Shown: in pieces, positions 20,656 to 43,945 of the stretch
Numbering within the stretch: position 1 is the first letter of the stretch
How the letters are laid out: each line of letters starts with the position of its first letter
Source: a virus
Virus record (IMG/VR): IMGVR_UViG_3300017698_000057
Span: 1-43,945 of that record
Length of the DNA: 43,945 nucleotides
Reading direction: 5' to 3' (one strand)
Translations under genes and position numbers: made by a program
Notes under the pieces: generated by a model
Told to the model about the DNA's origin: nothing
Database searches by the model: none
The model's input: the letters and a program-made list of their open reading frames with translations, nothing else

Positions 20656-21046
20656 GAACTATCTCCGCTCCATTTTCGAGCAACATGCGCCGGAAACCTC
20701 GCAGGGTGTATGCACGCCACCCCAAGAGGGCCGCGCATTGGGTTCCGCAGTGCAGGTGCGGGCGGATCATGGGGTAGGTGATGCGGTCGGTGCGGTGGCC
20801 GATCTTGAGGATTTCGCGGCACCGCATGAAGCGTTCCTGCCCGAAATCAAGGATTTCCTCGTAGAGATGCGTGATTTCGATGATCGTGTGCCGGCCGCGC
20901 GGGTCGAAGAACAGCCATGTCCCGTCGATGGTGTATCCCCATGCCTCGACGTGGCCGAACATGGTGGTGACGCTTTCCCGGCCGCGGGCGATGTCGATCA
21001 GCGAGCCCCGATCATGGAAGCCGAAGTACCATTCGTGAATGTTCAC
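20585..21046 (-). CDS. Hypothetical 153-aa protein between terminase and portal
   Basis: The GTG start overlaps the TerL stop as GTGA and has AGGAGG 6 nt upstream. No family was recognised. Confidence 0.55.
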   Translation of the reverse strand: MNIHEWYFGFHDRGSLIDIARGRESVTTMFGHVEAWGYTIDGTWLFFDPRGRHTIIEITHLYEEILDFGQERFMRCREILKIGHRTDRITYPMIRPHLHCGTQCAALLGWRAYTLRGFRRMLLENGAEIVHERSEGRSSGEGGTGTATQASGS

Positions 21047-23496: not shown

Positions 23497-23753
23497 CAGT
23501 CCGTCCCCCGTACAACATCCAACAACTCGGCGTGAGCCGCCGTCAAAGCGCCAAGCATCACGAACCCGCCGCACATCCCAGCAAGACGAAAACCCGCTGT
23601 CCCGTCAAAATGCTCGAACGCAAACACACCACCGACAATCTCGCCAGACCGCGCTGCCTCCAAAGCTGCCTCCAAAGCCGCAACCAACGTCGCATTCGGC
23701 TCCAAAACACCCGTAGGACCACCGCAAAGGCTCACAACTTTCCCGTCACTCAT
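23496..23753 (-). CDS. Hypothetical 85-aa protein immediately upstream of TerL (small terminase candidate)
   Basis: MSDGKVVSLCGGPTG... with GGGAGG 9 nt upstream. Its stop overlaps the TerL ATG. Its size is comparable to T7 gp18. Confidence 0.5.
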   Translation of the reverse strand: MSDGKVVSLCGGPTGVLEPNATLVAALEAALEAARSGEIVGGVFAFEHFDGTAGFRLAGMCGGFVMLGALTAAHAELLDVVRGTD

Positions 23754-24125: not shown

Positions 24126-24665
24126 TCAGTTGCCCGCATCATCTGGCCCCTGACCCGTCACATCCTCGGCCGATCCCTCGATCTCTACCACGCGCTGCCC
24201 AGGTCGGGCATACTCGTAACCCCCTGAATTTACGGTGTTATTTATCGTGATCGACGCCGCCGGAGACGCCTCGCGCCTGAAGAACTCGACCATGCGCGCC
24301 TTCACCTGTTCGCTTTTTGCGTTGTCAAGGAGGTAAGCAGCTACCTCAAGTGCGCGTGCTTTGTGCCGCAGCGCGAGGTCTTCACAGTGTTGAATATACT
24401 TGTCTTTTTCGATTTCGTAGAGGGCTTTAACATGCTCTTGCCTGAACGCCTTGTGCCATGCAGCTTCGGAGAGGTCAGCGAGGGCGCATGCTTCCTTGAT
24501 CGTCAGGCCCTTGTGGACCCTGTTCTTGATTGCCTTGCGTAGTTTTGCGCTTACGCGCCGGGCTCCGCCCCGCTTCACTCCCCCTGTAGGTGGTTTATCG
24601 TGGCATATCTCGACGGGCCCGGCCCTGGTCTCGATGGTGGTAAATCCGCGCGGTTCTTTTGTCAT
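24126..24665 (-). CDS. HTH DNA-binding protein (small terminase or late-gene regulator candidate)
   Basis: 179 aa with the HTH-like segment GLTIKEACALADLSEAAWHKAF followed by a helical region. It is the first gene of the minus-strand late block. Confidence 0.45.
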   Translation of the reverse strand: MTKEPRGFTTIETRAGPVEICHDKPPTGGVKRGGARRVSAKLRKAIKNRVHKGLTIKEACALADLSEAAWHKAFRQEHVKALYEIEKDKYIQHCEDLALRHKARALEVAAYLLDNAKSEQVKARMVEFFRREASPAASITINNTVNSGGYEYARPGQRVVEIEGSAEDVTGQGPDDAGN

Positions 24666-24752
24666 GCGGCGGATGATGCGGCGGCGGCGTCGGTCTTATC
24701 TATGCACGATGGCGGCGCGGCTCTTTCCCGATCATTTTTTTCGCTTTTGGTC

Positions 24753-24781
24753 TTGACCGGCGGTTTTTCTGTTCTTATATC
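24753..24781 (+). promoter_or_regulatory. Sigma70-like promoter for the plus-strand island
   Basis: TTGACC (24753-24758), a 17-nt spacer and TATATC (24776-24781), 50 nt upstream of the ATG at 24831. Confidence 0.5.
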
Positions 24782-24830
24782 TCGGTCATGGGCGCCGGAA
24801 ACGCCCGACCACACAGAGAGAGGAAAGACC

Positions 24831-25052
24831 ATGAGCATCATTGACCGCCTCAATTCCGGCGAACTGCACGCCGCCGCACGCGCCCGCCGTCCCGATTGTG
24901 TGGATGGCAACGGCAACATTCACGTTTCGCCCGAACGCGCGCGCTTTGTTGATTGGCTGCGCCGGATGAAAACCATCTACGGCGATGACGTGGCCGAGTG
25001 GCCGCCGATCCCGCGCGCCGAATACGCCCGCAAATATGTGCCGTCGCACTGA
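24831..25052 (+). CDS. Hypothetical 73-aa protein
   Basis: Preceded by CACAGAGAGAGGAAAGACC before the ATG. Third-codon-position GC is high. Confidence 0.6.
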   Translation: MSIIDRLNSGELHAAARARRPDCVDGNGNIHVSPERARFVDWLRRMKTIYGDDVAEWPPIPRAEYARKYVPSH

Positions 25053-25144
25053 CCCATCTACGGCGGCTTTCCGAAGCCGTCGCTACATGGGCCAGACCAT
25101 GACCCGGACGGAAACCGGGGAAACACAGAGAGAGAGGATTAAAG

Positions 25145-25741
25145 ATGGCAACTCGCGCAACGTACACAATCGACGGCGTAAACTTTTACTGCCACTGGGA
25201 CGGCTACCCCGCTGGCGCGGCGGGCCGCTTCATCGCCATGATTGAGGCAATGACCGCCATAGAGGATGACCCCAAGCGCGCATGGTGCGGGCCTTTCCAA
25301 GATCGGCGCGGCGGCGCGGCCTTCGCGTTCATCCGTGGCAATCTCGATGCAGAGCCAGCTTGGCCGGGCGGCCACGGCGACACCGAATTTCATTACGAGA
25401 TCTGGACCGCCGACGATGGCCGCCTGCACATCCACTACAAAGAACGCCACTACGGCGACGACTGGAATCCGGTTGATACCCTGACGCTGGCCGAGTTCTG
25501 CAATCGCCACGGCCGAAAGTTCGATTTGCCGCGCGTGGTCGAGATGCGGGAAGATGCCTACGGCGTCGCCGGCCACGTGACCCGGTACAAGATCGCCACT
25601 GCACCCACGGCAGAGCGCGCGGTTTCGCACCAAGTCGCACGGGCCGAGGAATACGGAGACCAGAACCCGAACGCCAAAGAATGCCTCAAGCGCGCCGACG
25701 CATGGCGTATCGCCTTGGAACTGGACGGCCAACCGGCCTGA
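25145..25741 (+). CDS. Hypothetical 198-aa protein (contains YCHWDGYP)
   Basis: Preceded by CACAGAGAGAGAGGATTAAAG before the ATG. No family was recognised. Confidence 0.65.
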   Translation: MATRATYTIDGVNFYCHWDGYPAGAAGRFIAMIEAMTAIEDDPKRAWCGPFQDRRGGAAFAFIRGNLDAEPAWPGGHGDTEFHYEIWTADDGRLHIHYKERHYGDDWNPVDTLTLAEFCNRHGRKFDLPRVVEMREDAYGVAGHVTRYKIATAPTAERAVSHQVARAEEYGDQNPNAKECLKRADAWRIALELDGQPA

Positions 25742-25812
25742 CGCATCGCCGGCGGCCCCGTGCGGGCCGTCGCACCATGCGCCAGAGCATGACAACCAGA
25801 GGAGATAGACAG

Positions 25813-25980
25813 ATGACCAATCAAGCCACCGGAGCCAGCCAGCATGACATTGGGCGGCAAGCAATCGTCAAGGGGTTCTCGGGGACGGGAACAGTCTCGC
25901 GCGTCATTGGCCGCACTGTTGAGATTGAACTGCCCTACGGCAAGGTCTCTGCCGACCAAGATAACGTCATAGTCAAATGA
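25813..25980 (+). CDS. Hypothetical 55-aa protein
   Basis: AGAGGAGA Shine-Dalgarno 7 nt upstream. The sequence is MTNQATGASQHDIGRQAIVKGFSGTGTVSRVIGRTVEIELPYGKV... Confidence 0.5.
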   Translation: MTNQATGASQHDIGRQAIVKGFSGTGTVSRVIGRTVEIELPYGKVSADQDNVIVK

Positions 25981-26163
25981 CCCCCGCTGAAATCCCCACC
26001 AGCGCACCCTACGCCCGGCCCATCAAACAGGCCGGGCAAAATCCTGCGCTCCATTTTGCGGGGTTTCCTGTTGCCCCGGCCCCATCCGGCAAGACCGGAT
26101 CGGAAAGGGGGCCAGGGCGGTTCCACAGAGAGCGGAACGGCCGCACCATAAAGGACGGATACC

Positions 26164-26451
26164 ATGCTGACCAGAGATCAGATTGACCAACTGTCGCCGG
26201 CGGAACGCACCGCCCTGCTGCGCGACCTGCTGCAAGCCGTTTTCGGTGATGCCAGCCAGCCGAAAATCTGCCACGCCCTCGACATTACACCCGTGACACT
26301 GCGGCGCTGGCTAAGGCAAGACGCCGTGCCCGCATGGCCGTTGATGCTCCTTGACGAGTGGCGGCAGTCGCACCGAACCGCCGAAATCCTTGATCAACTT
26401 GGCGAACTGGAATCGCAGATCAGCGCCTTGCGCGCCGCCGCTTCTGCCTGA
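26164..26451 (+). CDS. Small HTH DNA-binding protein
   Basis: 95 aa with the HTH-like segment KICHALDITPVTLRRWLRQD. Its 3' end overlaps a minus-strand gene convergently by 32 nt. Confidence 0.55.
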   Translation: MLTRDQIDQLSPAERTALLRDLLQAVFGDASQPKICHALDITPVTLRRWLRQDAVPAWPLMLLDEWRQSHRTAEILDQLGELESQISALRAAASA

Positions 26452-26920
26452 GAAGTTCCGCGCGCCTCTTGCGGGACTCGTAGCGGTCCCGCGTTTCCTC
26501 GATGAGACGGCAGGTAATCGGCGGCAAGGTGGACGGCCGCAGCACCACTTCATAGCCCAAGGTCTGCGCCCAGATCAGATAGGTGACGATGTTCGGCAAC
26601 CGCGTCGGCTCGTCCCGCTCGAATTTCAGCATCTGATCCGTTGCAATTCCCGCCGCCGTCTCGACTTCCTCGATCGACAGCCCCAACTGTTCACGGCGCC
26701 GCCGCAGCACCTGGCGCGCGTCGTCAAAGCTTTCGATCACTTCATCAAGGCTCAACCGTTGATCAACTTCGCGCTTCGGTATCACGCCGCCCGGCTTGAT
26801 CCGCAGCCGCATCGAGCATCCCGGCTCCTTGCAACGGGCGATGCACGACGAGTCCTTGTCGGCCACCTCGATCATCCAGCCGCGGGCCTCTATCGCGCGA
26901 AAGAACTTCGCATCCGACAT
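26420..26920 (-). CDS. XRE-family HTH regulator with a Cys-containing N-terminal domain
   Basis: 166 aa. The HTH_3-like core is LRRRREQLGLSIEEVETAAGIATDQMLKFERDE. The N-terminus contains CIARCKEPGC. Confidence 0.65.
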   Translation of the reverse strand: MSDAKFFRAIEARGWMIEVADKDSSCIARCKEPGCSMRLRIKPGGVIPKREVDQRLSLDEVIESFDDARQVLRRRREQLGLSIEEVETAAGIATDQMLKFERDEPTRLPNIVTYLIWAQTLGYEVVLRPSTLPPITCRLIEETRDRYESRKRRAELLRQKRRRARR

Positions 26921-27120
26921 CACAATTCCCCTCGCACGATCCTGATCTGGTACGCCTTGAGATTGGAGATATGCAGCGCCCGCACCCGGTCAAATTTGGC
27001 AATCTCTTTCACGCGGTCCCGTTCCTCATTGGCGACGGCGGCAATCTCTGCCTCCGTCTTGCATTCGATCAGGCGGTTCTTGATCCGCCTGACCTCGGCA
27101 AAGATTTCGTCATCGGTCAT
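26920..27120 (-). CDS. Hypothetical 66-aa helical protein
   Basis: MTDDEIFAEVRRIKNRLIECKTEAEIAAVANEERDRVKEI... It is coupled to both neighbouring genes. Confidence 0.55.
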   Translation of the reverse strand: MTDDEIFAEVRRIKNRLIECKTEAEIAAVANEERDRVKEIAKFDRVRALHISNLKAYQIRIVRGEL

Positions 27121-27475
27121 CTACCAGTGTCCAGACGGTCGGCTTGCCGTTCATCTCTGCCACCCGCTCGCTGGTGATGTATCCGTTTTGCCGCAGCGCA
27201 CATAGGCGCGTGCTGGTCGTGTCGATCCGTTCATCCAGGGCGACGGCGATCTGCCGGGTGGTCGACGGCCCGTGATCCCTGAGAAATTTCAGCACCGGGC
27301 GATAGTTCGGCCGCTCGTGCATCAGGTCAGACGTGCGGTTTTCCGGCAACTTCCCCCTGGTTCCGACCTTGCGCTGCATGAACTCGGCAAACCGTTCCTC
27401 GCCGATCATCGACACAAACGCATCCATCGGATCGGCCACAGGCCGGCGGCTCGAAATAATCACATGGTCACGCAT
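27110..27475 (-). CDS. Winged-helix (MarR-like) DNA-binding protein
   Basis: 121 aa containing LKFLRDHGPSTTRQIAVALDERIDTTSTRLCALRQNGYITSERV. Confidence 0.55.
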   Translation of the reverse strand: MRDHVIISSRRPVADPMDAFVSMIGEERFAEFMQRKVGTRGKLPENRTSDLMHERPNYRPVLKFLRDHGPSTTRQIAVALDERIDTTSTRLCALRQNGYITSERVAEMNGKPTVWTLVDDR

Positions 27476-27626
27476 CGTTTTCCTCCATTGCTGCCTTGAC
27501 GGCACCCGCCGCCCATCCCGCCGCGATCAATCCCGCGCGGATCATCCGATCTTCGGCACCACCGGCCCGCATCCGCTCGACCAACGGCTTGATCTCGGCA
27601 ACCTGCCGCTTCTGTTCCGGGGTCAT
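27468..27626 (-). CDS. Possible 52-aa protein (not in the ORF track)
   Basis: MTPEQKRQVAEIKPLVERMRAGGAEDRMIRAGLIAAGWAAGAVKAAMEENDA. It overlaps the upstream stop as ATGA, has GGAGATGGAGGG upstream and has high third-position GC. Confidence 0.5.
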   Translation of the reverse strand: MTPEQKRQVAEIKPLVERMRAGGAEDRMIRAGLIAAGWAAGAVKAAMEENDA

Positions 27627-27958
27627 CCCTCCATCTCCTTCAGCTTCGCCACGATCACGCCGACGATTGTTGCCGGGTAAATCTCTCCGAACAGCCGCAC
27701 CACGGACAGGTTGCGCCCGATTTCCTCAAGGGTCGCCCCGTGCTGCAACAGCAGTGAAATGAGGATGCAGGCGTCCTGTACGGTGTCGCGCAGGTTCGAC
27801 CCCGTGCGCTGGCCGTCCGCATAAAAAACCTCCCTAATTGCGCCGGTTTCTGGCTCAAAACCCGCAGTCACATGAAAGGGATGCTCTGCCATCTCGGATT
27901 TCCACACCGCGCGCACCGTCATCGACGGCCGCCGGTTCGGTAGGTGTTGCCGGGTCAT
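27623..27958 (-). CDS. TSCPD-like (ribonucleotide reductase C-terminal-like) domain protein
   Basis: 111 aa with the pattern LPNRRPS...EVFYADGQRTGSNLRDTVQDACILISLLLQHGATLEEI, as in small alphaproteobacterial TSCPD-domain proteins. It overlaps the methyltransferase stop as ATGA. Confidence 0.5.
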   Translation of the reverse strand: MTRQHLPNRRPSMTVRAVWKSEMAEHPFHVTAGFEPETGAIREVFYADGQRTGSNLRDTVQDACILISLLLQHGATLEEIGRNLSVVRLFGEIYPATIVGVIVAKLKEMEG

Positions 27959-29346
27959 TCTTCCATCCTCACAAGAGTTCCAGTTGATCCGCCGATTTCG
28001 TTTCCGCAGGCGGCTTCCAGATCCACGGGGCGCAGGCCGTGGGCAACCGCCAGAGAGCGCCACGCATGGCCCGCTGCCAGTGGGCAAACTCCGTTGCCGA
28101 GCAGTCGCAAAGCGAATGACCGGACGGCCACCCCATGAGCCATTCGACGAACACGGGGTTCAAACGGCGCTTCCTGCCGTTTGCCGCCATCCGTTTCCAC
28201 GCGGCCCGGTAATTCACTTGCTCTTGCAAAGTCGAACAGATCACGAGCCGACGCAGCCGGCGCCATGTCTGGCGCGGATCGGATGACGGCGCCCCATGCT
28301 TCGGTTTCGTTTGGTCCGGGTGGGAAAAGAGGAATGCCACGGCATTCGGCAACTGGTCCATGTGCAACCTGCCCGTTCCGTTGTTCAGGTGATCCGGGCT
28401 GTTCTCGCCCTTGTGATCCCGACTGGCCGGCGTCGGCCAGTTCGCCGCGTCCCGCGCCAGGCAGGCATTCCCCGCCTTGCTGGTCGGCACCTGACCGCTG
28501 CCCCGCATCGTTACATCGTGGGCTTGTGGGGTGGTCCAGTTCGCCGCTTGCGCTGGCAGTGGAGTTCCGCCTGCTCCGAACGCCATGTTCGGACCGCCCT
28601 TCGTTCCGTCCGTCGATCGAGGCGTTCCCCACACCCGATCCGCCATCGCCTCTGCCTTCCTGCTGAAATCGCTGTTCCCCGCTGCGCTGTTGCCGTTCTG
28701 CGCCGGGGTTCCCGCCATCGGCGTCTGCCACTGTCGCGCCGCATTTCCCAGCCCCACCGTCACCTTGCGGCCATCCGGAGTGATCCCGGTTGCCGACGTT
28801 CCTGGTGGAAGAGCTCTCCCGCCGCTTGGGGTGTCCGCCGTAGGCCACGCAGAACCACCGGAGCCGTTCGTGCGGAGCGCCTGTTTCTTGCGCTGAGAAT
28901 AGGCCAGTCGCAGGCGTCCAGCCCATGTCCCATAACTCTCGCAACACGGTTTCCGCACCCAGGCTGACATGACCGGCGACGTTTTCGAGAAACACCCATC
29001 GAGGCTGGACTTCGCGGATGATGCGGGCGACTTCCGGCCACAGGTGCCGTTCGTCATCTTCGCCCTTTCGCTGGCCCGCCTGGCTGAATGGCTGGCAGGG
29101 GTAGCCTGCAAGGATGGTGTCGATATGCCCGCGCCACGGGATGCCGTCGAAGGTGCAGACATCGTCCCAGATCGGGGCCGGGGAAAAGTATCCGGCACGC
29201 TGGGCGGCGATGATGGATTGCCGCGGGTATTCCTCCCATTCGACGTAGCAGCGGGTGTGAAATCCGGGCTCTGCGAGTTGCAATCCCATGTCGAGGCCAC
29301 CGCCGCCGGCACACAGGGACAATCCGTTTTCGGGACGTAGCACCAT
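27955..29346 (-). CDS. DNA (cytosine-5) methyltransferase with an apparent reading-frame disruption
   Basis: In this frame: motif I LSLCAGGGGLDMG, motif IV GYPCQPFSQAG, motif VI FLENV and motif VIII APHERLRWFCVA. The middle part is low-complexity here. The overlapping ORF 27969-29486 carries WxTP repeats and LNPVFVEWLMGWP. Confidence 0.7.
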   Translation of the reverse strand: MVLRPENGLSLCAGGGGLDMGLQLAEPGFHTRCYVEWEEYPRQSIIAAQRAGYFSPAPIWDDVCTFDGIPWRGHIDTILAGYPCQPFSQAGQRKGEDDERHLWPEVARIIREVQPRWVFLENVAGHVSLGAETVLRELWDMGWTPATGLFSAQETGAPHERLRWFCVAYGGHPKRRESSSTRNVGNRDHSGWPQGDGGAGKCGATVADADGGNPGAERQQRSGEQRFQQEGRGDGGSGVGNASIDGRNEGRSEHGVRSRRNSTASASGELDHPTSPRCNDAGQRSGADQQGGECLPGAGRGELADAGQSGSQGREQPGSPEQRNGQVAHGPVAECRGIPLFPPGPNETEAWGAVIRSAPDMAPAASARDLFDFARASELPGRVETDGGKRQEAPFEPRVRRMAHGVAVRSFALRLLGNGVCPLAAGHAWRSLAVAHGLRPVDLEAACGNEIGGSTGTLVRMEE

Positions 29347-29347
29347 G

Positions 29348-30721
29348 TCAAAACTCGTCTCCCAAATCCCAAAATCGGTTCGTCGCCAGGTCGCAGCCGA
29401 CCGTGACGGTTCCGATGTCGCCCATGCGGGCCTTTTCGATGATGATTTCGGCGCGGTTCTTCCACCGCTCGCAATCCGCTTCCCAATCGGCGCGTTCGTC
29501 GATCTTCTGCGGCGGCGTCTGCCGTTTCAGGTAGTACTCGGGCCGGTGAATGAACATCACGTTGTCCGGTGCGTTTTCCAGATCTCCCGATCCGCGCAGA
29601 TGCGCCAGCCGGGGCCGCGCCATCTCGAAACTGTCCGACGCGCTGATCTTGCGGTCCACCTGGGCCAGCGCCAACACATGCACGTCGAGGATTTTGGCAA
29701 CCTGCTTGAGATCGTTCGCTACCTGCGACAGCCGCACGAAGGCGCTTTCACCCTTGCCACGGACCAACTGGATGTAGTCGATCACCAAAAGCTGAAAGCC
29801 GCGGAACTTGTCATTCGCCGGCATCCGGTGTTTGAGCCGCTTCGCTTCCGACAGGATCGCCGGCACGTCGCGCACCTTTTGCGAAAATATCTCGATCGGC
29901 AGAGAGTCCATCGCCTTTGCCGCCTCGATCACCTGACGGAAAACCGCGTCACTGGTGGCCCGGTCCATCGCCTTGTACGGGATCTGCGACTCGATGGATT
30001 TCACCCGCTTGGCAATATCTTCCTCGCCCATCTCCAACGTGAGATAGCCGACGCCATGCCCGGCCTTCGCCGCCGCGTACATCAGCCAGATCGCAAGCGC
30101 GGTCTTGCCCATCGACGTGCTGCCGCCGAGAACCGTGTATCGCTTCGGCGAAAACGAGATCATGTTGTCCAGCGACGGCAGGCCCGTGGGAATGCCGATC
30201 TCGCGCCCCTCGCGCACCGCCTGCATTTGCTCGACGGATTGCCGTAGAGCCTTGAGGAACGACATCGACCGCGGCGCCGCGCTGTCATCCTCACGCTGCA
30301 TCAGCATGATTTCCAGCTTGCTGACGGCATCGGCCAGATCGCCGCCGCCCGTCAGATCGGTTTCGATCCCCCGAACTTCTTCCAGAACCGCCCGCTTGCC
30401 GTGGAAGTCTCGGACCATCGCCGCATAGTGCCGAACCGCGCCGGGATCGGCCGCCGCCGCCAGCCGCACCAGGTAGCCCGGCCCGCCGAGTTGATCGAGC
30501 CCTTCATCCCCTTCCAGCGCGGCCTTTGCCGTGATCGGCGATGCAAGCTGATCCGCCTCGATCCGGGACGCCGCGTGCGCCCATATCCGGGCGTGTAACG
30601 GCTCGTAGAAATGCTCCGGCCGCAGCCGCTCAATGGCATGATAGGCGTCGTTGTTCACCAGAACCGCGCCAATTACCTGCTGTTCCGCCTCGATCGAGTG
30701 CGGCTCGATCTGTTCCGTCAT
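29348..30721 (-). CDS. dnaB: Replicative DNA helicase, DnaB family
   Basis: 457 aa with N-terminal HSIEAEQQVIGAVL, Walker A GGSTSMGKTA, and typical DnaB motifs LVIDYIQL and LAQVDR. Confidence 0.9.
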   Translation of the reverse strand: MTEQIEPHSIEAEQQVIGAVLVNNDAYHAIERLRPEHFYEPLHARIWAHAASRIEADQLASPITAKAALEGDEGLDQLGGPGYLVRLAAAADPGAVRHYAAMVRDFHGKRAVLEEVRGIETDLTGGGDLADAVSKLEIMLMQREDDSAAPRSMSFLKALRQSVEQMQAVREGREIGIPTGLPSLDNMISFSPKRYTVLGGSTSMGKTALAIWLMYAAAKAGHGVGYLTLEMGEEDIAKRVKSIESQIPYKAMDRATSDAVFRQVIEAAKAMDSLPIEIFSQKVRDVPAILSEAKRLKHRMPANDKFRGFQLLVIDYIQLVRGKGESAFVRLSQVANDLKQVAKILDVHVLALAQVDRKISASDSFEMARPRLAHLRGSGDLENAPDNVMFIHRPEYYLKRQTPPQKIDERADWEADCERWKNRAEIIIEKARMGDIGTVTVGCDLATNRFWDLGDEF

Positions 30722-31137
30722 GCCTCGATCCCGCGATAGATTTTCAGCCAGTGACGCGCGGCCCGGTTCGGCTTCCCGTCCACCTGCATCGACGGCGGAA
30801 CCAGCCCGTCCCGAAGAAACGACTTCTGGTGAACCGTCAGATCATCCTCGGAATAGCCACGGTTCAGGATCGAAAGGATCGCGCCCGGTGTCGGGCGAAC
30901 GCGGGGCTCCGTCGAAAGGTACTGGCGGCAAGCGTCCTGAATTTCATCCTGCGAATACGGCTCAAGCAGGTCGATCCAGTCATCCATTGCCGCTTCTTCC
31001 TGGTCCCGCGGCATGTTCGGCTGGAAGTAGTGGGAGAGAAGCACCTTCACCCGGCCCACAATCCATTCGGCGTGCTGCACGGCGTTCGGCGATGCGACGT
31101 GCGAAGTCGGCGGTGCTTTCATCGGCGGATTGTGCAT
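30718..31137 (-). CDS. Hypothetical replication-module protein (helicase-loader position)
   Basis: 139 aa starting MHNPPMK, with AGGAGG 9 nt upstream. This frame has high third-position GC. It overlaps the DnaB start as ATGA. Confidence 0.55.
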   Translation of the reverse strand: MHNPPMKAPPTSHVASPNAVQHAEWIVGRVKVLLSHYFQPNMPRDQEEAAMDDWIDLLEPYSQDEIQDACRQYLSTEPRVRPTPGAILSILNRGYSEDDLTVHQKSFLRDGLVPPSMQVDGKPNRAARHWLKIYRGIEA

Positions 31138-31864
31138 TTCTCGGGCCTCCTGATCCGTTTGGAGTTTTGTCAACCAGCGGTCGGAAGAACTCGCTATCCA
31201 ACCACGTCACGAAAGCCCGGTCCCAATCGAGGAAGAGCTTTCCTTTTGCCAAGGCGTCGTTCTTGAATTTCTGGAATTGCGCTTCGGCCTCTTGCAGCGA
31301 GTGCCCGCGCTTGCGAGCCGCCCTGATCTGAGCATCTGAAATCACCGCGTCCTCAGACATTCGGGATTTTCGTTTGGGCCGAGTTTTCTTTTCGGTAGCC
31401 CGTTTCTGTTTCTCAGGAAGCGAATTGGCTGAGAAAAGATCGGAAGAAGATTCGTTAGAATCTTCTGTTACTGACGTTACTGACGGTTTGGGTGACATGG
31501 GCGTCACTTCAGAAGTGACATGGGCGTCACCTCTGAGGTGACATAATGGCACTTCGGGTTTCTCCGAAGGTGGTGACATAATGTCACTTCGCCACGCATG
31601 GGCTGGCGCGATCTGATAGAGGTTGGTCTTGAGCGGGGAGCCGTTTCTCCGAACCGAAATTATGCCATTCGCTGCGAGGTCAGATAGGCACCTTTTGACC
31701 TGTCGTGGGCTCAATCTGGTCTTTGGCGCAAGCGTCTCATTGATGCCCGGATAGCACATTCTAGACCGCTCATCCGCACTATCGGCCAGGGCCAAAAGAA
31801 CCAGCAACGTTCCTTGATCGACCGGAGCGTGTTTCCAGACTTCATTCATGATCTCGATACTCAT
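30980..31864 (-). CDS. Replication initiator-like protein (N-terminal winged HTH), containing origin-like iterons
   Basis: The N-terminus MNEVWKHAPVDQGTLLVLLALADSADE...LSPRQVKRCLSDLAANGIISV is HTH-like. A Ser/Pro-rich linker is encoded by the iteron region. The last 158 nt or so overlap the next gene and have low third-position GC. Confidence 0.6.
   Translation of the reverse strand: MSIEIMNEVWKHAPVDQGTLLVLLALADSADERSRMCYPGINETLAPKTRLSPRQVKRCLSDLAANGIISVRRNGSPLKTNLYQIAPAHAWRSDIMSPPSEKPEVPLCHLRGDAHVTSEVTPMSPKPSVTSVTEDSNESSSDLFSANSLPEKQKRATEKKTRPKRKSRMSEDAVISDAQIRAARKRGHSLQEAEAQFQKFKNDALAKGKLFLDWDRAFVTWLDSEFFRPLVDKTPNGSGGPRNAQSADESTADFARRIAERRAARRMDCGPGEGASLPLLPAEHAAGPGRSGNG
31445..31587. repeat. 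Origin-of-replication-like repeat cluster inside the initiator gene
   Basis: A palindrome AGAAGATTC-GTTA-GAATCTTCT (31445-31466), tandem GTTACTGAC x2 (31467-31484), and four GTGAC-N5/6-G(T/G)CAC sites at 31492-31507, 31515-31530, 31538-31552 and 31573-31587. Confidence 0.6.
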
Positions 31865-32094
31865 CCCGCCCTCCTAAAAATAACCGCAAGGCACCCTTCG
31901 GCCCGCAGTATTGAAACCTCGCGCCGCACGTCCTCGACGGCGCAATTCAGTTCGATCGCTATGTCCTCGACCCCCAGTCCGCTGGTCAGAAGTTCGCGGA
32001 CCCGCACGATCCAGGCGCTGTTCTTGCATCTCACCGGAACAACTCCAGAACAACTCCCCCAACGGCATCGACTGGTGGCGAACAAATTCTCCAT
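31861..32094 (-). CDS. Small HTH-like protein
   Basis: 77 aa starting MENLFATSRC and containing VRELLTSGLGVEDIAIELNCAVEDVRREV. It overlaps the initiator start as ATGA. The start is uncertain. Confidence 0.45.
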   Translation of the reverse strand: MENLFATSRCRWGSCSGVVPVRCKNSAWIVRVRELLTSGLGVEDIAIELNCAVEDVRREVSILRAEGCLAVIFRRAG

Positions 32095-32572
32095 GGAGCT
32101 TTGCTTTTGCGCTTTCATAGGCGGCGGACGCTTCTTCAGCGCAATCAAACACCCCTAAGTGGATAAGCTTTTTTTGGTGCCTTATTTGAGCTCTAAAACG
32201 ACCGTTTCCGTAGTGCTGAACACCCCTGAAACCAGTTGAATTGTTTTTATAATCTTTAAGGTTTTGCGCGTTGTTTATCGGGTCACAAATTCGCAGGTTA
32301 GATCGGACATTGTTGAGGCCATTTCCGTCGATATGATCAACAACTCTATCATCTGGACACCTTGCAATAATGCGGTGAAGTTGAATTGTTTTCCTCACCC
32401 CACCTGCCAGCCGATCTGTTCTGCGAGCATAGGCATTTGTCTTGTCAATAAATACGTGCCAGACGTAGCCTTCGACCAACTTCAAATCATCGCAGTCGAT
32501 TACCGTTACTAATCCCTGAGACAGCGGTATGAACGCTCTGCTTCCAATGATCTTCGGTCGCCTGTTATTCAT
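31874..32572 (-). CDS. HNH endonuclease with AP2 DNA-binding domain (homing-endonuclease type)
   Basis: HNH_3-like VDHIDGNGLNNVRSNLRI and AP2-like STGFRGVQHYGNGRFRAQIRHQKKLIHLGVFDCAEEASAAYESAKAKLHGEF. The recognisable domains end at about 32110. The ORF then runs on over the next gene with low third-position GC. Confidence 0.7.
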   Translation of the reverse strand: MNNRRPKIIGSRAFIPLSQGLVTVIDCDDLKLVEGYVWHVFIDKTNAYARRTDRLAGGVRKTIQLHRIIARCPDDRVVDHIDGNGLNNVRSNLRICDPINNAQNLKDYKNNSTGFRGVQHYGNGRFRAQIRHQKKLIHLGVFDCAEEASAAYESAKAKLHGEFVRHQSMPLGELFWSCSGEMQEQRLDRAGPRTSDQRTGGRGHSDRTELRRRGRAARGFNTAGRRVPCGYF

Positions 32573-33098
32573 GATGAACTCCAAAAAGCTCGCCGAGCGG
32601 CCGGGATTGATATCCCGAGGCAAAGGTTGCTTGAGCCCAATCCCAGATCGCATAGGAATCAGCCTCGTCATGCGTCTCCGGCGTCCAGCCGAGAAGCTGG
32701 CACCTGGCGATGACTTCCTGCTTGATCGCCTTCTTTGCGGCTGCCGGTTTCAGGTGCGGAAAATGCTTTACGGACAGGCTCTTGCCGAGAAAGTGCTTCC
32801 GCACCGTTGCCAGATGCGCCGTCTCGCACTTCACGCCGTGGCGCCATGCAACACCGCGCACACAGGCTACGAGCCCGATCAGGTACGCGGATGCCTTTGG
32901 CCCGCCGACGGGTGCCTCTGCCACGATCAGGTCGGGCCGGTGCTTGTCGATGATGGTTTCCGCCAGTGTGGCGACATTGGAAAACCGCCGGTCATCCGGT
33001 GGCTTGCCAAGATCGCACGTCCATGCGGCAGGGTCCGCACCGGACTCGCCGATGCAGACCCCCGTTTTGCTCGCTATGTCGAGCGCGCAGATCAGCAT
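32565..33098 (-). CDS. ruvC: RuvC-like Holliday junction resolvase
   Basis: 177 aa with ICALDIASKTG near the N-terminus, LIVAEAP, and DEADSYAIWDW near the C-terminus. These are the typical RuvC acidic residues. Confidence 0.7.
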   Translation of the reverse strand: MLICALDIASKTGVCIGESGADPAAWTCDLGKPPDDRRFSNVATLAETIIDKHRPDLIVAEAPVGGPKASAYLIGLVACVRGVAWRHGVKCETAHLATVRKHFLGKSLSVKHFPHLKPAAAKKAIKQEVIARCQLLGWTPETHDEADSYAIWDWAQATFASGYQSRPLGELFGVHHE

Positions 33099-33475
33099 TA
33101 CTGCACGACTTCCAGCGATGCCGGTTCGGCGTCGAAGTCCATCTCCGACTGGCCGGCAATGTGCGCCTTCACCATCGGCAGGCCGAGTTCCAGCGACCGG
33201 ATCACGTCCATTGCCTTGTCCCGCGACTTGTCGCCGGTTTTCATGATCTGCCGCAGGATCGAGTACGCCTTCTTGTTGAAGCCGGTCTCGTCGATGAACT
33301 GGCCAATGTCGGCACGGGTTTCCGCTGCCGACGATACCCGTTCAGCATCTTCGCGGTTGTGTTGCACGGCCCGCCCGATCAGCGTGTCGTGGTCGATGTC
33401 GAGTTCTTCTTCGTCCATTTCCGATCCTTTCCGTTGTTGCCAGATCTCGCTCGGGCGTGCGCCTGTTGACGACAT
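33098..33475 (-). CDS. Hypothetical acidic protein
   Basis: 125 aa, or 106 aa from the ATG at 33418, which has AAAGGA upstream. Its stop overlaps the RuvC ATG as TAATG. Confidence 0.5.
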   Translation of the reverse strand: MSSTGARPSEIWQQRKGSEMDEEELDIDHDTLIGRAVQHNREDAERVSSAAETRADIGQFIDETGFNKKAYSILRQIMKTGDKSRDKAMDVIRSLELGLPMVKAHIAGQSEMDFDAEPASLEVVQ

Positions 33476-33614
33476 TTGCGGCTAATGCGGGTAATCAGCC
33501 CCGGCGGCCCGCGGCATGTCGTCGTTGAGCCCTCAGCGAGCGGGCTTGAGGTTGCCGCCGTGTTGGAATTTCGTGTGGAAACGTGCTTTCCTGCCCGGCA
33601 CAGGAGGAACCGAC

Positions 33615-33806
33615 ATGCTGGACAGACTTGTTGAGGTGCTTGCCTGGTACGGCGGGATCATGGCTGCCGTGCAGGTCATGGCCTACGCCAACCGACACAA
33701 TCACGACCCTGCCGAATTTATCTTTTTTCAGAGCATCTACTGGGGCGCGCTTACCCTCTTTGGAGCCTTGTTCTACATCCCAAGCGGCATGATCCTCGGG
33801 TACTGA
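33615..33806 (+). CDS. Small 2-TM membrane protein, antisense to the early operon
   Basis: 63 aa starting MLDRLVEVLAWYGGIMAAVQVMAYA, with a second helix IYWGALTLFGALFYIPSGMILGY. AGGAGG lies 7 nt upstream. Third-position GC is about 75 percent, against about 46 percent for the overlapping minus-strand ORF. Confidence 0.6.
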   Translation: MLDRLVEVLAWYGGIMAAVQVMAYANRHNHDPAEFIFFQSIYWGALTLFGALFYIPSGMILGY

Positions 33807-33889
33807 CCGACCGCCGGAAACCGATTGTTTCCAGACTTGGCCGTGCAATGCAGGCCGGGAAACCCCACGTATTTCAGCGGGTTGGGGCA

Positions 33890-34123
33890 TCAGTCACCCC
33901 CGTTTATCGGGGTGGATGCGGAGCGTTCGATATGATCACCAGCCCAGAAAGACAGCGGCACTGCGCCCTCAGTGATGCGCTCAAGGGCCGCGGCCTTCTC
34001 CCAGTTCGGTTTTGCTTGTCCCGTGATCCAGCGGTGGATCGTTGGTTGGGTGACGCCAAGTTCCGCAGCAAGAGCGGCTTGGGTCATCTTGGACTGTTCC
34101 AGATATACAGCGAGCTTTGACAT
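33890..34123 (-). CDS. Cro / YdaS-like HTH protein, first gene of the minus-strand early operon
   Basis: 77 aa with MTQAALAAELGVTQPTIHRWITGQAKP. It is divergent from the XRE gene and has no Shine-Dalgarno upstream. Confidence 0.7.
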   Translation of the reverse strand: MSKLAVYLEQSKMTQAALAAELGVTQPTIHRWITGQAKPNWEKAAALERITEGAVPLSFWAGDHIERSASTPINGGD

Positions 34124-34129
34124 GCCCGG

Positions 34130-34159
34130 ACCATACGTCCAACGTATTTATACAGTCAA
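34130..34159 (-). promoter_or_regulatory. Candidate early promoter (PR-like) for the Cro-like gene
   Basis: On the minus strand: TTGACT (34159-34154), an 18-nt spacer, TATGGT (34135-34130), and then 6 nt before the ATG. This implies a leaderless or near-leaderless transcript. Confidence 0.4.
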
Positions 34160-34173
34160 TACGTCACGCGGAT
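34133..34173. promoter_or_regulatory. Two operator-like 15-bp inverted repeats (ATACG-N5-CGTAT type)
   Basis: ATACGTCCAACGTAT (34133-34147) and ATACGTCACGCGGAT (34159-34173) overlap the candidate -10 and -35 elements. Confidence 0.5.
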
Positions 34174-34227
34174 ATTTATACGCGCAGGGCTATAGGTCTC
34201 CTGCCGACTGCGCGGCATAAGGCGCGC

Positions 34228-34491
34228 ATGAAGAATCTTCGCGCCATCCGCAAATCCAAGAACCTCTCTCAAGCCAACTTGGCTGAGATGGTGGGCGTCA
34301 AGCAGGCCACGATCTCGCGCATCGAGAAAGGAGTGAACCACCCCTCTCTTGATGTCGTGATAAAAATTGCGGATGTGCTGGACGTTACCGAGGTGGAGTT
34401 GTTCAGGAGTTGTTCGGCTTGCCAGAGATGGAGCAGAAGGTCTTACAGGCTTTCCGCGAAGCAAGCCCAGAACGGCGCGCCGCGCTGCTGA
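34228..34491 (+). CDS. XRE-family repressor in the CI position, C-terminus altered by an 11-bp duplication
   Basis: HTH_3 core LRAIRKSKNLSQANLAEMVGVKQATISRIEKGVNHPSLDVVIKIADVLDVTEVELF. The tail RSCSACQRWSRRSY... is out of frame relative to a better-looking C-terminus. Confidence 0.7.
   Translation: MKNLRAIRKSKNLSQANLAEMVGVKQATISRIEKGVNHPSLDVVIKIADVLDVTEVELFRSCSACQRWSRRSYRLSAKQAQNGAPRC
34395..34416 (+). repeat. 11-bp tandem duplication GGAGTTGTTC(A/G) x2
   Basis: GGAGTTGTTCA (34395-34405) and GGAGTTGTTCG (34406-34416), inside the repressor gene. Confidence 0.9.
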
Positions 34492-34659
34492 CGCTTCTTT
34501 CCGACGATCAGTAAGGGCGGGATCGCACCCGCACCCTGTAAGGTATTTCAGCGCGGCCCATAGCTGCCGTTTGTAATCCTCTTTCATTTGTAACCTCCCT
34601 TAATCGCTACACCTGCGGTTTATCCAAAAATACCTTTGCGCGACACTTTTTTTCAAAAT

Positions 34660-34702
34660 ATACGCCACACGCATTGACAGGCATATACGCACGACGTATT
34701 TT
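34660..34702 (+). promoter_or_regulatory. PL-like promoter with two operator-like sites
   Basis: TTGACA (34674-34679), a 17-nt spacer and TATTTT (34697-34702). It is overlapped by ATACGCCACACGCAT (34660-34674) and ATACGCACGACGTAT (34685-34699). Confidence 0.55.
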
Positions 34703-34751
34703 TCTCCCCACATCCCGCCGAATCTGACAGGCGGCAAACGGGAGAGAGACG

Positions 34752-35123
34752 ATGCCGAAGCCCAAAATCACACCCGGCATGAACTATGCCACGCTCACGG
34801 ATTTCGGTGATCCGACCGCGCCGGTTTGGAGCGACACGCTCATGCGGTTCGATGACGCCTGCACGGTGTTCGCGGAACACATGGATGCGGGCCGCGATAC
34901 CACGGTTTTCCGCGTCGATCCTGCCGTTGGCTATGCCGCCGCAGTGATGATCGACGTGACCGACGATGCCGAAGCGCGCGTCACCAAGTGGCTCATGAAG
35001 CGCGGCGATGATCTGCCCGAATGGCTGGGCGGCGATCCCGAAACCTGCCCCGACTGTCACCGCGAACACTGCAACTGCGACGAGGCATATGACCTGCGCG
35101 CGGAAGCCGGTGAGATAGCCTGA
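34752..35123 (+). CDS. Hypothetical 123-aa protein (C-terminal CPDCHREHCNC)
   Basis: First gene after the PL-like promoter, with a GGGAGAG Shine-Dalgarno. Confidence 0.6.
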   Translation: MPKPKITPGMNYATLTDFGDPTAPVWSDTLMRFDDACTVFAEHMDAGRDTTVFRVDPAVGYAAAVMIDVTDDAEARVTKWLMKRGDDLPEWLGGDPETCPDCHREHCNCDEAYDLRAEAGEIA

Positions 35124-35186
35124 ATGCCCCGCCAACTACCCGGCGGGGTTCACGCCTCGCCGGGGATTTTCAGAAGGGAACATGAT

Positions 35187-42176: not shown

Positions 42177-42440
42177 ATGCCCGCCAAGCCAGACCGCACC
42201 TTTGCCGCCGAAAGCCTGTACGGGTCGAACGAGTGGGTTTCGCTCCGCTTGGGCATGGCGAAGGATACGTGGTTTCGGAAGCGCGGTTGCCTGTACGAGC
42301 GCGGCTTTCCGAAGCCCGACAAGGACACGGGGCTCTACCTGAAAGCGGACGTTGACGCATGGATCGCACGGCAAAGCCGCTTTGGCGACGGGCATGGTAT
42401 GGTGTCGGCACCAAGGGGAGTACGAATCGATGCGATATAA
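42177..42440 (+). CDS. xis: Excisionase / AlpA-family DNA-binding protein
   Basis: 87 aa containing NEWVSLRLGMAKDTWFRKRGCLYERGFPKPDKDTGLYLKADVDAWI. It lies immediately upstream of the integrase and overlaps it. Confidence 0.6.
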   Translation: MPAKPDRTFAAESLYGSNEWVSLRLGMAKDTWFRKRGCLYERGFPKPDKDTGLYLKADVDAWIARQSRFGDGHGMVSAPRGVRIDAI

Positions 42441-43611
42441 ATCCGCGCTATTTGACGGCTCTGATCCCGGCTACGCTCCGGGGCTGAACTGGTCCGGGCG
42501 ATACGCCTACTGGAAACCTACCCGCAAATATGTGGACTTGGGGCACCCGACGGCCCCAATACGCCTGCCGGGCACCAAGGGCGACGGCCGGGACGCAGAG
42601 AGGGCCGCAGAGGCCCGCCGCCTGACACGGGCGATGATCGAGAATTACCAGCCAGACGACGGCCCGACGCCCGGAACATGGTCGTGGGTGATCCGTCGGT
42701 GGAAGGAAGATGCCTACAGCCGTTACAACACCTGCGGCGCCAACACCCGCGCGGATTACGACTACCGCACGAAGAAGTGGGACGCGATCATCGGGCACAT
42801 GCAGATCGACGCCCTGACCTACGACCAGATCAACGTGATCCGTCGGGCGATGGACGAGAAGGATTACTCGGACAGCCTCAAGCAGAAGCTGTTCGGAATG
42901 CTGCGGCACCTTGCCCGGTATTCTCTTGGGCCGCTGCAACAGAAGCAGACGCGCGACCTGGTGGACATTCTCGGGGAAATGCGGTTCCGGTCGCCGTCGA
43001 GGAAGGACTCGGCGCCAACGCGGGAACAGATCCGTGCGGTGATCGACGAAGCCGATGCCCGCGGCATGTTCGCCTTTGCAACCGGCATCCTGTTCCAGTG
43101 GACTTACGCGCTGCGGGCCGTCGACGTGCGGGGCCAGTGGCTTCCCGCCGACGGAGAGGGCGGCATCGTGCGCGACGGCAAGCGGTGGCAGGACGGGCTG
43201 ACGTGGGACATGTTCGACAAGGATTTGACGGAGTGGGGCAAGGTGATCTCCAAGACGCAGACAGCCGTTGAGGGCGTGCGCCTGACGCCGGAACTGCGCT
43301 GCCGCCTGCGGCTTCTGCGGAACGTGTGCGGCACCGGCCCGGTGATCGTGTCGGAGCGGCTTGATGCGCCGTACACCAAGCACGGGTGGTCACGGGCATT
43401 CCGCCGTATCCGCGATGATCTCGGTATTCCCGACACCGTGAAGATGATGGACACCCGCGCCGGGGCCCTGACGGAAGCGAAGAACCTGGGCGTTGATCCG
43501 TTCGCCCTGCGCGATCTCGGCACGCACGCACATGTCAGCACGACGGACGGCTATGCGAGGGGCCGCAGCGAGAACATCAACAAGGTGGTCGAACTGAGGG
43601 GGCGGAAGTGA
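42430..43611 (+). CDS. int: Tyrosine integrase
   Basis: 393 aa. The C-terminal catalytic region has ALRAVDV (Arg), DTRAGALTEA, and LGTHAHVSTTDGYAR (His and the Tyr nucleophile). It is adjacent to the att/tRNA. Confidence 0.85.
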   Translation: MRYKSALFDGSDPGYAPGLNWSGRYAYWKPTRKYVDLGHPTAPIRLPGTKGDGRDAERAAEARRLTRAMIENYQPDDGPTPGTWSWVIRRWKEDAYSRYNTCGANTRADYDYRTKKWDAIIGHMQIDALTYDQINVIRRAMDEKDYSDSLKQKLFGMLRHLARYSLGPLQQKQTRDLVDILGEMRFRSPSRKDSAPTREQIRAVIDEADARGMFAFATGILFQWTYALRAVDVRGQWLPADGEGGIVRDGKRWQDGLTWDMFDKDLTEWGKVISKTQTAVEGVRLTPELRCRLRLLRNVCGTGPVIVSERLDAPYTKHGWSRAFRRIRDDLGIPDTVKMMDTRAGALTEAKNLGVDPFALRDLGTHAHVSTTDGYARGRSENINKVVELRGRK

Positions 43612-43832
43612 CGGGCGATAACATCATATACCTGCACGATTTCATCAAGAATTGTCCCGACAGCGCGGTACTGGAAAAGGTCTCTACGCAACTTGCACGT
43701 CTATCCGTCGCTGCCAGGGCCTTGTCGGCGCGGGACGACATGACCGATACCGAGAAATGGAACGCTTTTTTTGCCGAACTCGAAGATTCGATCTTCACGA
43801 TTAAGGACGAGAACGAGTCGGAAACGCTTTGA
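43608..43832 (+). CDS. Hypothetical 74-aa acidic protein between int and att
   Basis: The GTG start overlaps the int stop as GTGA. The region is visibly AT-richer than the rest of the phage. Confidence 0.45.
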   Translation: MTGDNIIYLHDFIKNCPDSAVLEKVSTQLARLSVAARALSARDDMTDTEKWNAFFAELEDSIFTIKDENESETL

Positions 43833-43869
43833 TACAACTCCGATACAACTGCCCGTTTTCGTCACAACT
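43831..43869. promoter_or_regulatory. Candidate integrase arm-type binding sites (right arm)
   Basis: GATACAACT at 43831-43839 and 43842-43850, and TCACAACT at 43862-43869. They lie between the last ORF and the att repeat. Confidence 0.45.
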
Positions 43870-43890: not shown

Positions 43891-43945
43891 TTTCAGTGGT
43901 GAGCCGTGCAGGATTCGAACCTGCGACCCACTGATTAAAAGTCAG
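43891..43945. repeat. att direct repeat, right copy
   Basis: Identical to bases 1-55. The repeat is cut by the window edge, so its true length may be greater. Confidence 0.9.
43897..43945 (-). tRNA. tRNA-Lys(UUU), 3' portion only (gene continues beyond the window end)
   Basis: The minus strand reads CTGA-CTTTTAA-TCAG (anticodon TTT), variable loop, T stem-loop GCAGG-TTCGAAT-CCTGC, acceptor ACGGCTC, discriminator A and CCA. The 5' half would lie to the right of the window. Confidence 0.75.

Follow-up and report, generated by a model that had tools for sequence, protein, structure and literature searches.

Paired 11-bp insertions and a frameshifted CI-position repressor gene in the assembled genome of a marine temperate phage

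The clear-plaque (c) frameshift mutants of lambdoid CI-type repressors are among the closest described counterparts of the locus presented here, a gene coding for an XRE-family repressor in the IMG/VR virus record IMGVR_UViG_3300017698_000057. The whole 43,945 base pairs (bp) of this JGI/IMG contig, hereafter the window, are the complete genome of a temperate marine phage whose host is a marine alphaproteobacterium. As in the lambdoid mutants, a small insertion lies in a repressor gene located between predicted divergent early promoters and operators. The layout also resembles that of lambda: a cro-like gene and the replication genes run in one direction, opposite to the repressor, the recombination genes and the integrase. 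The locus differs from lambdoid CI in that its ancestral repressor is only 91 amino acids (aa) long, has no S24 autocleavage domain, and was interrupted by a duplication of 10 bp plus 1 base which is paired with an identical one elsewhere in the genome. The allele itself is of an ordinary type, a frameshifted repressor; what is unusual about it is the paired insertion.

With respect to protein architecture, the nearest systems are the SinR-type repressors (also ClgR, C.Csp231I and the repressor of the arbitrium phage phi106), which share with the model of the present protein a five-helix N-terminal helix-turn-helix (HTH) domain followed by two extra helices. The C-terminal helical hairpin of SinR-type repressors serves multimerisation and antagonist binding. 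The likeness differs from identity of type in that the full-length alignment is loose, sequence similarity is confined to the HTH and oligomerisation through the hairpin is attributed here by analogy.

For the paired insertions, a close comparison is the model of staggered breaks, in which two pairs of offset nicks, once their 5' overhangs have been filled in and the ends joined, leave each breakpoint with a duplicate of whatever lay between the nicks (Ranz et al. 2007, PMC1885836). A short block is likewise duplicated at both sites here, but the segment between them has kept its orientation, and the blocks, of just 10 bp each, themselves form an inverted repeat. The extra untemplated base recalls Ku/LigD end-joining, being typical of end-joining polymerases, and the bacterial LigD polymerase performs both templated and non-templated nucleotide addition (PMC8068969). 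Finally, the homing endonuclease genes of the IPA-HNH class (PMC10448857) resemble the gene that carries the second insertion in combining an N-terminal HNH with a C-terminal AP2 domain, in being present or absent at a fixed point among relatives 90-96% identical, and in bringing a recoded end for the host gene. The resemblance is limited by Pfam scores under the gathering cut-offs and by the fact that the endonuclease is known here from sequence alone.

The repressor gene and its single-copy twin

The repressor gene, its insertion (site 2) and the displaced coding segment are located as follows.

34228-34491, + strand: XRE/HTH_3 repressor gene as written, ATG at 34228 and TGA at 34489-34491, 87 aa
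34395-34415, + strand: site 2, with GGAGTTGTTC at 34395-34404, a junction base A at 34405 and GGAGTTGTTC again at 34406-34415; inserted sequence of 11 bp when compared with the single-copy twin
34416-34514, + strand: ancestral C-terminal coding segment GLPEMEQKVLQAFREASPERRAALLTLLSDDQ with its stop codon, now out of frame, coding for the predicted helices H6 and H7

The product of the gene as written matches the HTH_3 family (PF01381) with E = 8.9e-20 and 70.9 bits (cut-off 23), residues 4-58 covering positions 1-55 of the 55 in the profile, and PHROG families of transcriptional repressors and regulators match it at 1e-16 to 1e-17. No match to a Peptidase_S24 domain was obtained in the repressor. 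An intact five-helix HTH (residues 1-59) is followed by a 28-aa out-of-frame tail, RSCSACQRWSRRSYRLSAKQAQNGAPRC, and the protein ends ...VELFRSCSACQRWSRRSYRLSAKQAQNGAPRC. Positions 34395-34405 read GGAGTTGTTCA and positions 34406-34416 read GGAGTTGTTCG, the two units being identical at 10 of 11 positions; removal of either one restores a protein of 91 aa that ends ...VELFGLPEMEQKVLQAFREASPERRAALLTLLSDDQ, with its stop codon at 34512-34514. An initial annotation of the window had described this tandem repeat and the two alternative protein ends, and our check of the sequence together with TRF, which reports an array of period 11 and 1.9 copies at 34395-34415, confirmed all of its coordinates and the two translations.

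A two-copy 11-bp array is by itself not rare. The window contains 27 short TRF arrays, and our own scan found three period-11 loci with at most one mismatch, where we estimate that about 0.4 would be expected under uniform base composition. Two facts set this array beyond chance: compared with a near-identical genome it is a genuine insertion, and the exact 10-mer is present at four places in the window where about 0.08 would be expected, a count reached in none of 100 shuffles. The four copies form two tandem pairs in inverted orientation, at 34395 and 34406 on the + strand and at 32037 and 32048 on the - strand.

The near-identical genome was found in the Logan collection (SRR5917977). BLASTN of one Logan locus against window positions 24217-35160 gave 0 mismatches and exactly two gaps (22 bp), which correspond to the two 11-bp units. 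Two further Logan loci cover 26 kb more with no gaps and four single-nucleotide polymorphisms (SNPs; 16891, 18386, 36727 and 37912), and the two assemblies therefore represent different genotypes; over the roughly 31 kb compared, nothing but these SNPs and the two insertions separates them. A literature search for the run yielded no publication. The SNP at 36727 changes a TGA stop into TGG and adds a few codons to a 388-aa open reading frame (ORF) of the window (phrog_8203, function unknown), while at 37912 the R. amoyensis outgroup shares the Logan allele.

The repaired 91-aa protein is present verbatim in the twin (P0001, Logan contig SRR5917977_3273), and 46 further relatives with 51-78% identity were found in bacteria of the Roseobacter group, among them Roseibacterium, Pseudooceanicola, Seohaeicola, Roseivivax and Salipiger. 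In two alignments, of 14 and of 30 relatives, VELFGLPELEQRxLxAFREASPERRAALLTLL is kept throughout, and the last 32 residues belong to the best conserved part of the family (31 sequences, 11 invariant columns). A search with the C-terminal 42 residues of the as-written product found no protein sharing even three 5-residue words with its tail. The proposal that the frameshift is recent and that the ancestral C-terminus is still encoded out of frame was thus borne out by the verbatim 91-aa product, as it was by the comparison of orthologues, in which the relatives keep GLPELEQ...AALLTLL and no protein has the RSCSACQ tail. One argument that had been advanced for it did not hold: third-position GC amounts to 0.72 in the frame of the as-written tail and 0.66 in the restored frame, and does not discriminate between them.

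AlphaFold2, run on an alignment of 31 sequences, modelled the 91-aa protein with a pLDDT of 89.8. The model consists of a five-helix HTH (residues 4-59) followed by two confident helices, H6 (61-74) and H7 (77-88), which form a hairpin of pLDDT 82-90, in agreement with the earlier suggestion that the restored tail is helical. The frameshift takes away exactly these two helices. In Foldseek comparisons the HTH superposes on CylR2, C.AhdI, SinR-N, P22 C2 and 434 Cro with root-mean-square deviations (rmsd) of 0.8-1.4 A over 55-58 residues. Full-length alignments, which include the HTH and the helical extension, were obtained only to SinR, ClgR, C.Csp231I and the phi106 repressor, and are loose (rmsd 8-11 A, TM 0.54-0.60; 10.8 A for SinR, 1b0n).

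Taken together, the conservation of frame and the twin genome show the gene of this contig to be a derived loss-of-frame allele of a 91-aa CI-position repressor, and they support a recent origin of the frameshifted two-copy state. The comparison also newly delineates a conserved family of XRE repressors of about 90 aa with a predicted C-terminal helical hairpin.

It is improbable that the two-copy allele is real but harmless, either with the HTH repressing alone or with the hairpin being translated separately from TTG 34410. HTH-only XRE dimers do exist, and two of them, CylR2 (66 aa) and C.AhdI (74 aa), head the list of structural matches to residues 1-59; the duplication, moreover, does place a GGAG 11 nucleotides (nt) upstream of the TTG. 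Against this, the lost residues are among those most highly conserved, the GGAG stands at a distance from the TTG that suits initiation poorly, and a split repressor was seen in no relative. The ORF concerned, of 34 aa (34410-34514, MFGLPEMEQ...), was made by the duplication and encodes exactly the lost hairpin; its separate translation is conceivable, if unlikely.

A second insertion in an HNH-AP2 endonuclease gene

The other tandem pair of 10-mers is a second 11-bp insertion relative to the twin genome, and its surroundings comprise the following features.

32037-32057, - strand: site 1, the 10-mer doubled with an 11-bp period, GGAGTTGTTC T GGAGTTGTTC (GAACAACTCC A GAACAACTCC on the + strand)
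31874-32572, - strand: HNH-AP2 gene as written, 232 aa here and 176 aa ending ...PLGELFR-stop in the single-copy genome
31861-32034, - strand: gene for a 57-aa protein with a GTG start, overlapping the HNH stop codon as GTGA in the single-copy genome
32565-33098, - strand: RuvC-like resolvase gene, its native 3' end displaced by the endonuclease cassette

The two copies of site 1 (32037-32046 and 32048-32057) lie at the 3' end of a predicted HNH-AP2 homing endonuclease gene, which is likewise frameshifted. The insertion makes this ORF run for 56 further codons, into the next gene; the homologues are all of 155-180 aa and none has such a read-through tail. The 10-mer also provides the GGAG Shine-Dalgarno-like sequence of the 57-aa gene. 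The Pfam matches of the endonuclease are 21.6 bits for HNH_3 (cut-off 24.8) and 22.5 bits for AP2 (cut-off 33.3); phrog_99, annotated as HNH endonuclease, matches it at 1.4e-37, and its homologues carry PF13392 and PF00847.

The endonuclease gene (window 32077-32623, - strand) is absent from the related loci L005 and L009 (R. amoyensis; compare L005 6469-6482), L006 and L008. In the relatives without it, RuvC ends ...YQSMPLGELFR-stop, encoded by the sequence that here ends the HNH ORF. This native RuvC end, site 1 included, is now fused in frame as the 3' end of the HNH ORF, and the cassette brings a recoded RuvC C-terminus, ..SRPLGELFGVHHE-stop. The HNH-AP2 gene can accordingly be described, from these alignments, as an insertion that is present or absent among otherwise collinear relatives, always at one point near the 3' terminus of the gene for the RuvC-like protein. 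Site 1 is in single copy in the relatives that lack the endonuclease (the prophage of R. amoyensis GCL-8, L006, L008 and an IMG/VR UViG), and the single-copy twin carries the same endonuclease gene together with both undoubled sites.

A further possibility is that a site-specific enzyme which recognises the 10-mer left both footprints in independent, repeatable hits. The enzyme might be the HNH-AP2 protein, the integrase, or that of an excised element with a 10-11-bp target duplication. Both perfect 10-mers were affected and four copies with one mismatch (3060, 11609, 13022 and 42070) were left untouched. Site 1 lies some 20-30 bp from the insertion point of the endonuclease gene, in the native RuvC 3' end that endonuclease-less relatives keep; homing enzymes cut at a distance from the insertion point, and a target would be expected at such a position. 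Moreover, the ACAACTCC contained in the 10-mer recurs in an 11-bp-period repeat next to the attachment (att) site, at 43831-43852. We nevertheless consider repeated enzyme footprints rather improbable: the two sites share no sequence outside the 10-mer, a doubled site gives no protection from an enzyme that needs the 10-mer only, the single-copy genome has the same endonuclease gene with both sites intact, no element is left between the copies, and no footprint was found in other genomes among the collections searched. We also know of no HNH, integrase or insertion-sequence enzyme with a 10-nt stagger.

Possible origins of the paired insertions

The sequence common to the two sites is exactly 10 bp, with flanks that differ on both sides, and the duplicated block is precisely those 10 bp. 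The sites are 2.36 kb apart on opposite strands, and the middle segment is not inverted. Both 34395-34415 and 32037-32057 are direct duplications of fixed length, 10 bp plus one base. With X denoting the 10-mer, T-X-G became T-X-A-X-G at site 2 and G-X-C became G-X-T-X-C at site 1 (in motif orientation); the eleventh base copies neither flank and is an A on the + strand of the contig at both sites. Apart from this base there is no element between the copies, nor was a transposase found in the window. Such an untemplated junction excludes replication slippage and simple tandem duplication. The slippage or duplication event initially put forward for the repressor therefore has to be abandoned, the more so as an identical insertion occurs at the only other 10-mer, 2.36 kb away on the opposite strand.

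On this anatomy, two independent accidents appear very unlikely. A process that pairs the two arms, or that recognises the 10-mer itself, and duplicates the sequence between staggered cuts would fit. The explanation we favour, although we hold its chances to be no better than even, is that the insertions are a real, one-off event of break and repair in which both arose together. In such an event, staggered breaks would bracket the 10-mer at both arms and leave 10-nt 5' overhangs, which would be filled in, extended by one extra base and ligated. The ends would then have been rejoined in the parental order, as in an aborted inversion or "open-and-shut" joint. A completed inversion of the arms would instead give the junctions ...GAGGT-GGAGTTGTTC-CGGTGAG... 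and ...GTTGGG-GGAGTTGTTC-GGCTTGCC....

Several other routes were considered and rejected. Copying of one site from the other, by quasi-palindrome template switch or gene conversion, fails since the central bases are A and A on the same strand and not complementary, and it is further disfavoured by the absence of the flank sequence of the other site. An inversion followed by re-inversion conserves the total number of copies (three) and cannot reach four. Cutting at cos ends by the terminase does not suit a pair of sites that are inverted and lie among the early genes, a long way from the terminase gene (21046-23574). As to escape from CRISPR or restriction, the flanks show no consistent protospacer-adjacent motif and the duplication removes no site.

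A number of observations weigh against the break-and-repair event. The single-copy sequence contains about 3,400 inverted pairs of 10-mers, 417 of them within 3 kb, and with hundreds of comparable pairs this one was not special beforehand. We know of no nuclease, and identified none, that would cut this sequence with a 10-nt stagger, and the uninverted middle segment obliges the break model to assume rejoining in the parental orientation. The same + strand A at both sites would be met about 1 time in 4 under strand-symmetric biology, and it is what a software placeholder predicts. The one- and two-copy states are known from two assemblies, that is, from contigs alone, and no second two-copy example was found in any collection searched. 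As for loss of function, HTH-only XRE proteins such as CylR2 and C.AhdI can be functional dimers.

The searches for two-copy alleles covered several collections. Megablast of positions 31800-34800 against the INPHARED phages gave no match, nor did scans of viral, genome and metagenome contigs with the 21-mer and with a 30-mer (flank plus 10-mer); a 22-mer at site 1 matched single-copy relatives only. The frameshifted products, queried as 18 start variants of the ORFs over either site, were absent from a collection of 15 billion proteins.

It is quite possible, though we do not hold it to be probable, that the insertions are an assembly artefact, an option that the initial annotation had listed too, three pieces (left flank, 2.36-kb middle and right flank) having been joined with their 10-bp inverted-repeat overlaps unmerged and a one-base placeholder A between them. 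The real phage would then be single-copy, with an intact repressor. In an independent assembly of what is essentially the same genome, both sites are single-copy, and the duplicated block coincides exactly with the shared inverted sequence, as would be the case for junctions defined by a graph or an overlap. The junction A on the + strand at both sites favours an artefact by about 4 to 1 on that feature alone, and both insertions break conserved reading frames. None of the 18 start variants occurs in the protein collection, though other proteins of the contig do. Only one SRA run in the Logan collection contains this phage, and the same sample may have been assembled twice. Unmerged-overlap duplications at scaffold joins are similar in leaving a short repeat about a one-base junction which is absent from another assembly; an origin of this kind would differ in needing contig ends set by a 10-bp repeat. 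Assemblers working at k of 21 or more cannot see such a repeat, and their contigs hold only k-mers of the reads, so that a repeat below normal k-mer sizes speaks against an artefact. So do the absence of Ns or join scars from the window and the four SNPs by which the two assemblies differ in consensus, and we could name no pipeline that leaves a one-base gap between 10-bp overlaps. On balance a real variant of any kind seems somewhat probable, most of that weight falling on the one-off event and a small part on the footprints of a site-specific enzyme. Should the artefact prove correct, it would be a warning that an assembly error can mimic a meaningful frameshift in an immunity gene, and that such an error comes to light when the duplicated unit is looked for elsewhere in its own contig.

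A programmed, reversible on/off switch by gain and loss of the 11-bp unit (a contingency locus), which the initial annotation had raised, appears very improbable. One- and two-copy states do exist in near-identical genomes, and RecA-independent deletion readily removes one of two 10-bp direct repeats. The two states are nevertheless known from two assemblies, with two copies only and no repeat tract. The junction base between the copies is untemplated, from which it follows that the forward step from one to two copies is not repeatable by slippage and that the term switch is unjustified. All 47 repressor relatives found, and every relative at site 1, have one copy, and a repressor switch would give no evident reason for the like change in an unrelated gene. 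A rescue of the frame by -1 ribosomal frameshifting was rejected on inspection of the sequence, a slippery heptamer being absent at G-TTG-TTC-A.

A more specific reading, in which a protein pairs the two inverted GGAGTTGTTC copies and cleaves each of them with a 10-nt stagger, so that both insertions were made at once and one of them inactivated the repressor, is in our opinion unlikely. Candidates for such a cutter would be the HNH-AP2 endonuclease, or the integrase acting through arm-site-like ACAACTCC motifs. If it were true, a selfish nuclease or recombinase could turn a temperate phage virulent.

The 8-mer ACAACTCC, which is the core of the duplicated 10-mer, occurs seven times in the window (five before the insertions) against 0.9 expected. 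The 11-bp-period direct repeat at 43831-43852, GATACAACTCC GATACAACTGC, adjoins the att core, and further CACAACT motifs are present at 43863-43869 and 100-107; by their sequence and position these are probably arm-type sites of the integrase or excisionase. The overlap of ACAACTCC with the att repeats may be a coincidence or a lead to the enzyme involved.

Consequences and the surrounding phage genome

If the analogy to SinR-type repressors holds, the hairpin probably serves in oligomerisation or in the binding of a partner. As the hairpin is conserved and lost here, a weakened or null repressor would be expected from the same analogy, without being certain. If the break-and-repair event is real, the outcome would be a clear-plaque or unstable-lysogen variant coexisting with the intact genotype, and reversion through loss of one copy between the 10-bp direct repeats is plausible. 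The phage would then offer a natural repressor-defective variant beside its intact twin in one marine community, useful for the study of the shift from temperate to virulent roseophages, and the paired insertions of 10+1 bp would be an unusually clean footprint of two-break repair or of a site-specific nuclease in a phage genome.

The immunity region around the repressor includes the following features.

33890-34123, - strand: Cro/YdaS-like HTH gene, divergent from the XRE gene and heading the leftward replication operon
34133-34178: two operator-like 15-bp palindromes ATACG-N5-CGyAT (starts 34133 and 34159) and a leftward promoter-like site, between the cro-like gene and the XRE gene
34660-34704: two further ATACG-N5-CGyAT motifs (starts 34660 and 34685) and a rightward TTGACA-17-TATTTT promoter-like site, 3' of the XRE gene
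42352-43611: integrase gene, adjoining the right-hand terminal repeat

The leftward replication operon continues after the Cro/YdaS-like gene with genes for RuvC, an O-like initiator and DnaB; 3' of the XRE gene, the + strand genes include those for a PDDEXK exonuclease, RecT and the integrase. The promoter-like sites on both sides of the XRE gene face outward. The gene thus occupies a lambda-like immunity slot, for which "CI position" is a fair label, and the earlier description of its product as a CI-position repressor agrees with the HTH_3 match, the divergent cro-like gene and the four operator-like motifs. The same slot holds a different XRE gene in one relative (L008) and none in another (L006).

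The latter relative (Logan SRR15311596_18708), 86-96% identical to the window, is without the whole XRE cassette of about 505 bp (window 34167-34672), which amounts to tolerance of repressor loss. At its XRE-less junction (L006 9905-9925), the inverted arms that flank the cassette in the window (34155-34177 and 34656-34678) are fused, and together make up a palindrome of 16 bp without mismatch, GTCAATACGTATTGAC. In the window, each arm holds one of the -35 boxes that the divergent early promoters present back to back. Since they fuse in the XRE-less relative, the XRE gene behaves as a removable cassette between promoters.

A 55-bp terminal direct repeat (1-55 and 43891-43945) bounds the window as the att core and is identical to the 3' half of a - strand gene resembling tRNA-Lys(UUU). 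The contig spans exactly from core to core, as would be expected if the assembly graph had branched at the att core, for example where free and integrated forms of the phage, or host tRNA genes, were present together. Contig ends at the att core fit a free phage, an integrated one or both, and the lysogeny status of the genotype therefore cannot be read from the contig.

Genes for an endolysin, a terminase and a T7-like portal protein are also present in the window. Between the portal and terminase regions lies a phage-borne tRNA-Cys(GCA) (20720-20811). In an 843-aa ORF (21046-23574), residues 51-373 match a PhoH-like family and residues 371-806 the terminase large subunit family; such a pairing is unusual for a single ORF, unless two separate genes have here been taken for one. 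A 23-bp unit, GTGACATGGGCGTCACCTCAGAA, recurs 2.3 times at 31467-31600 within the gene for the O-like replication initiator, with further copies of GGTGACATAATG.CACTTCG, and these repeats look like an iteron-type origin comparable to lambda ori.

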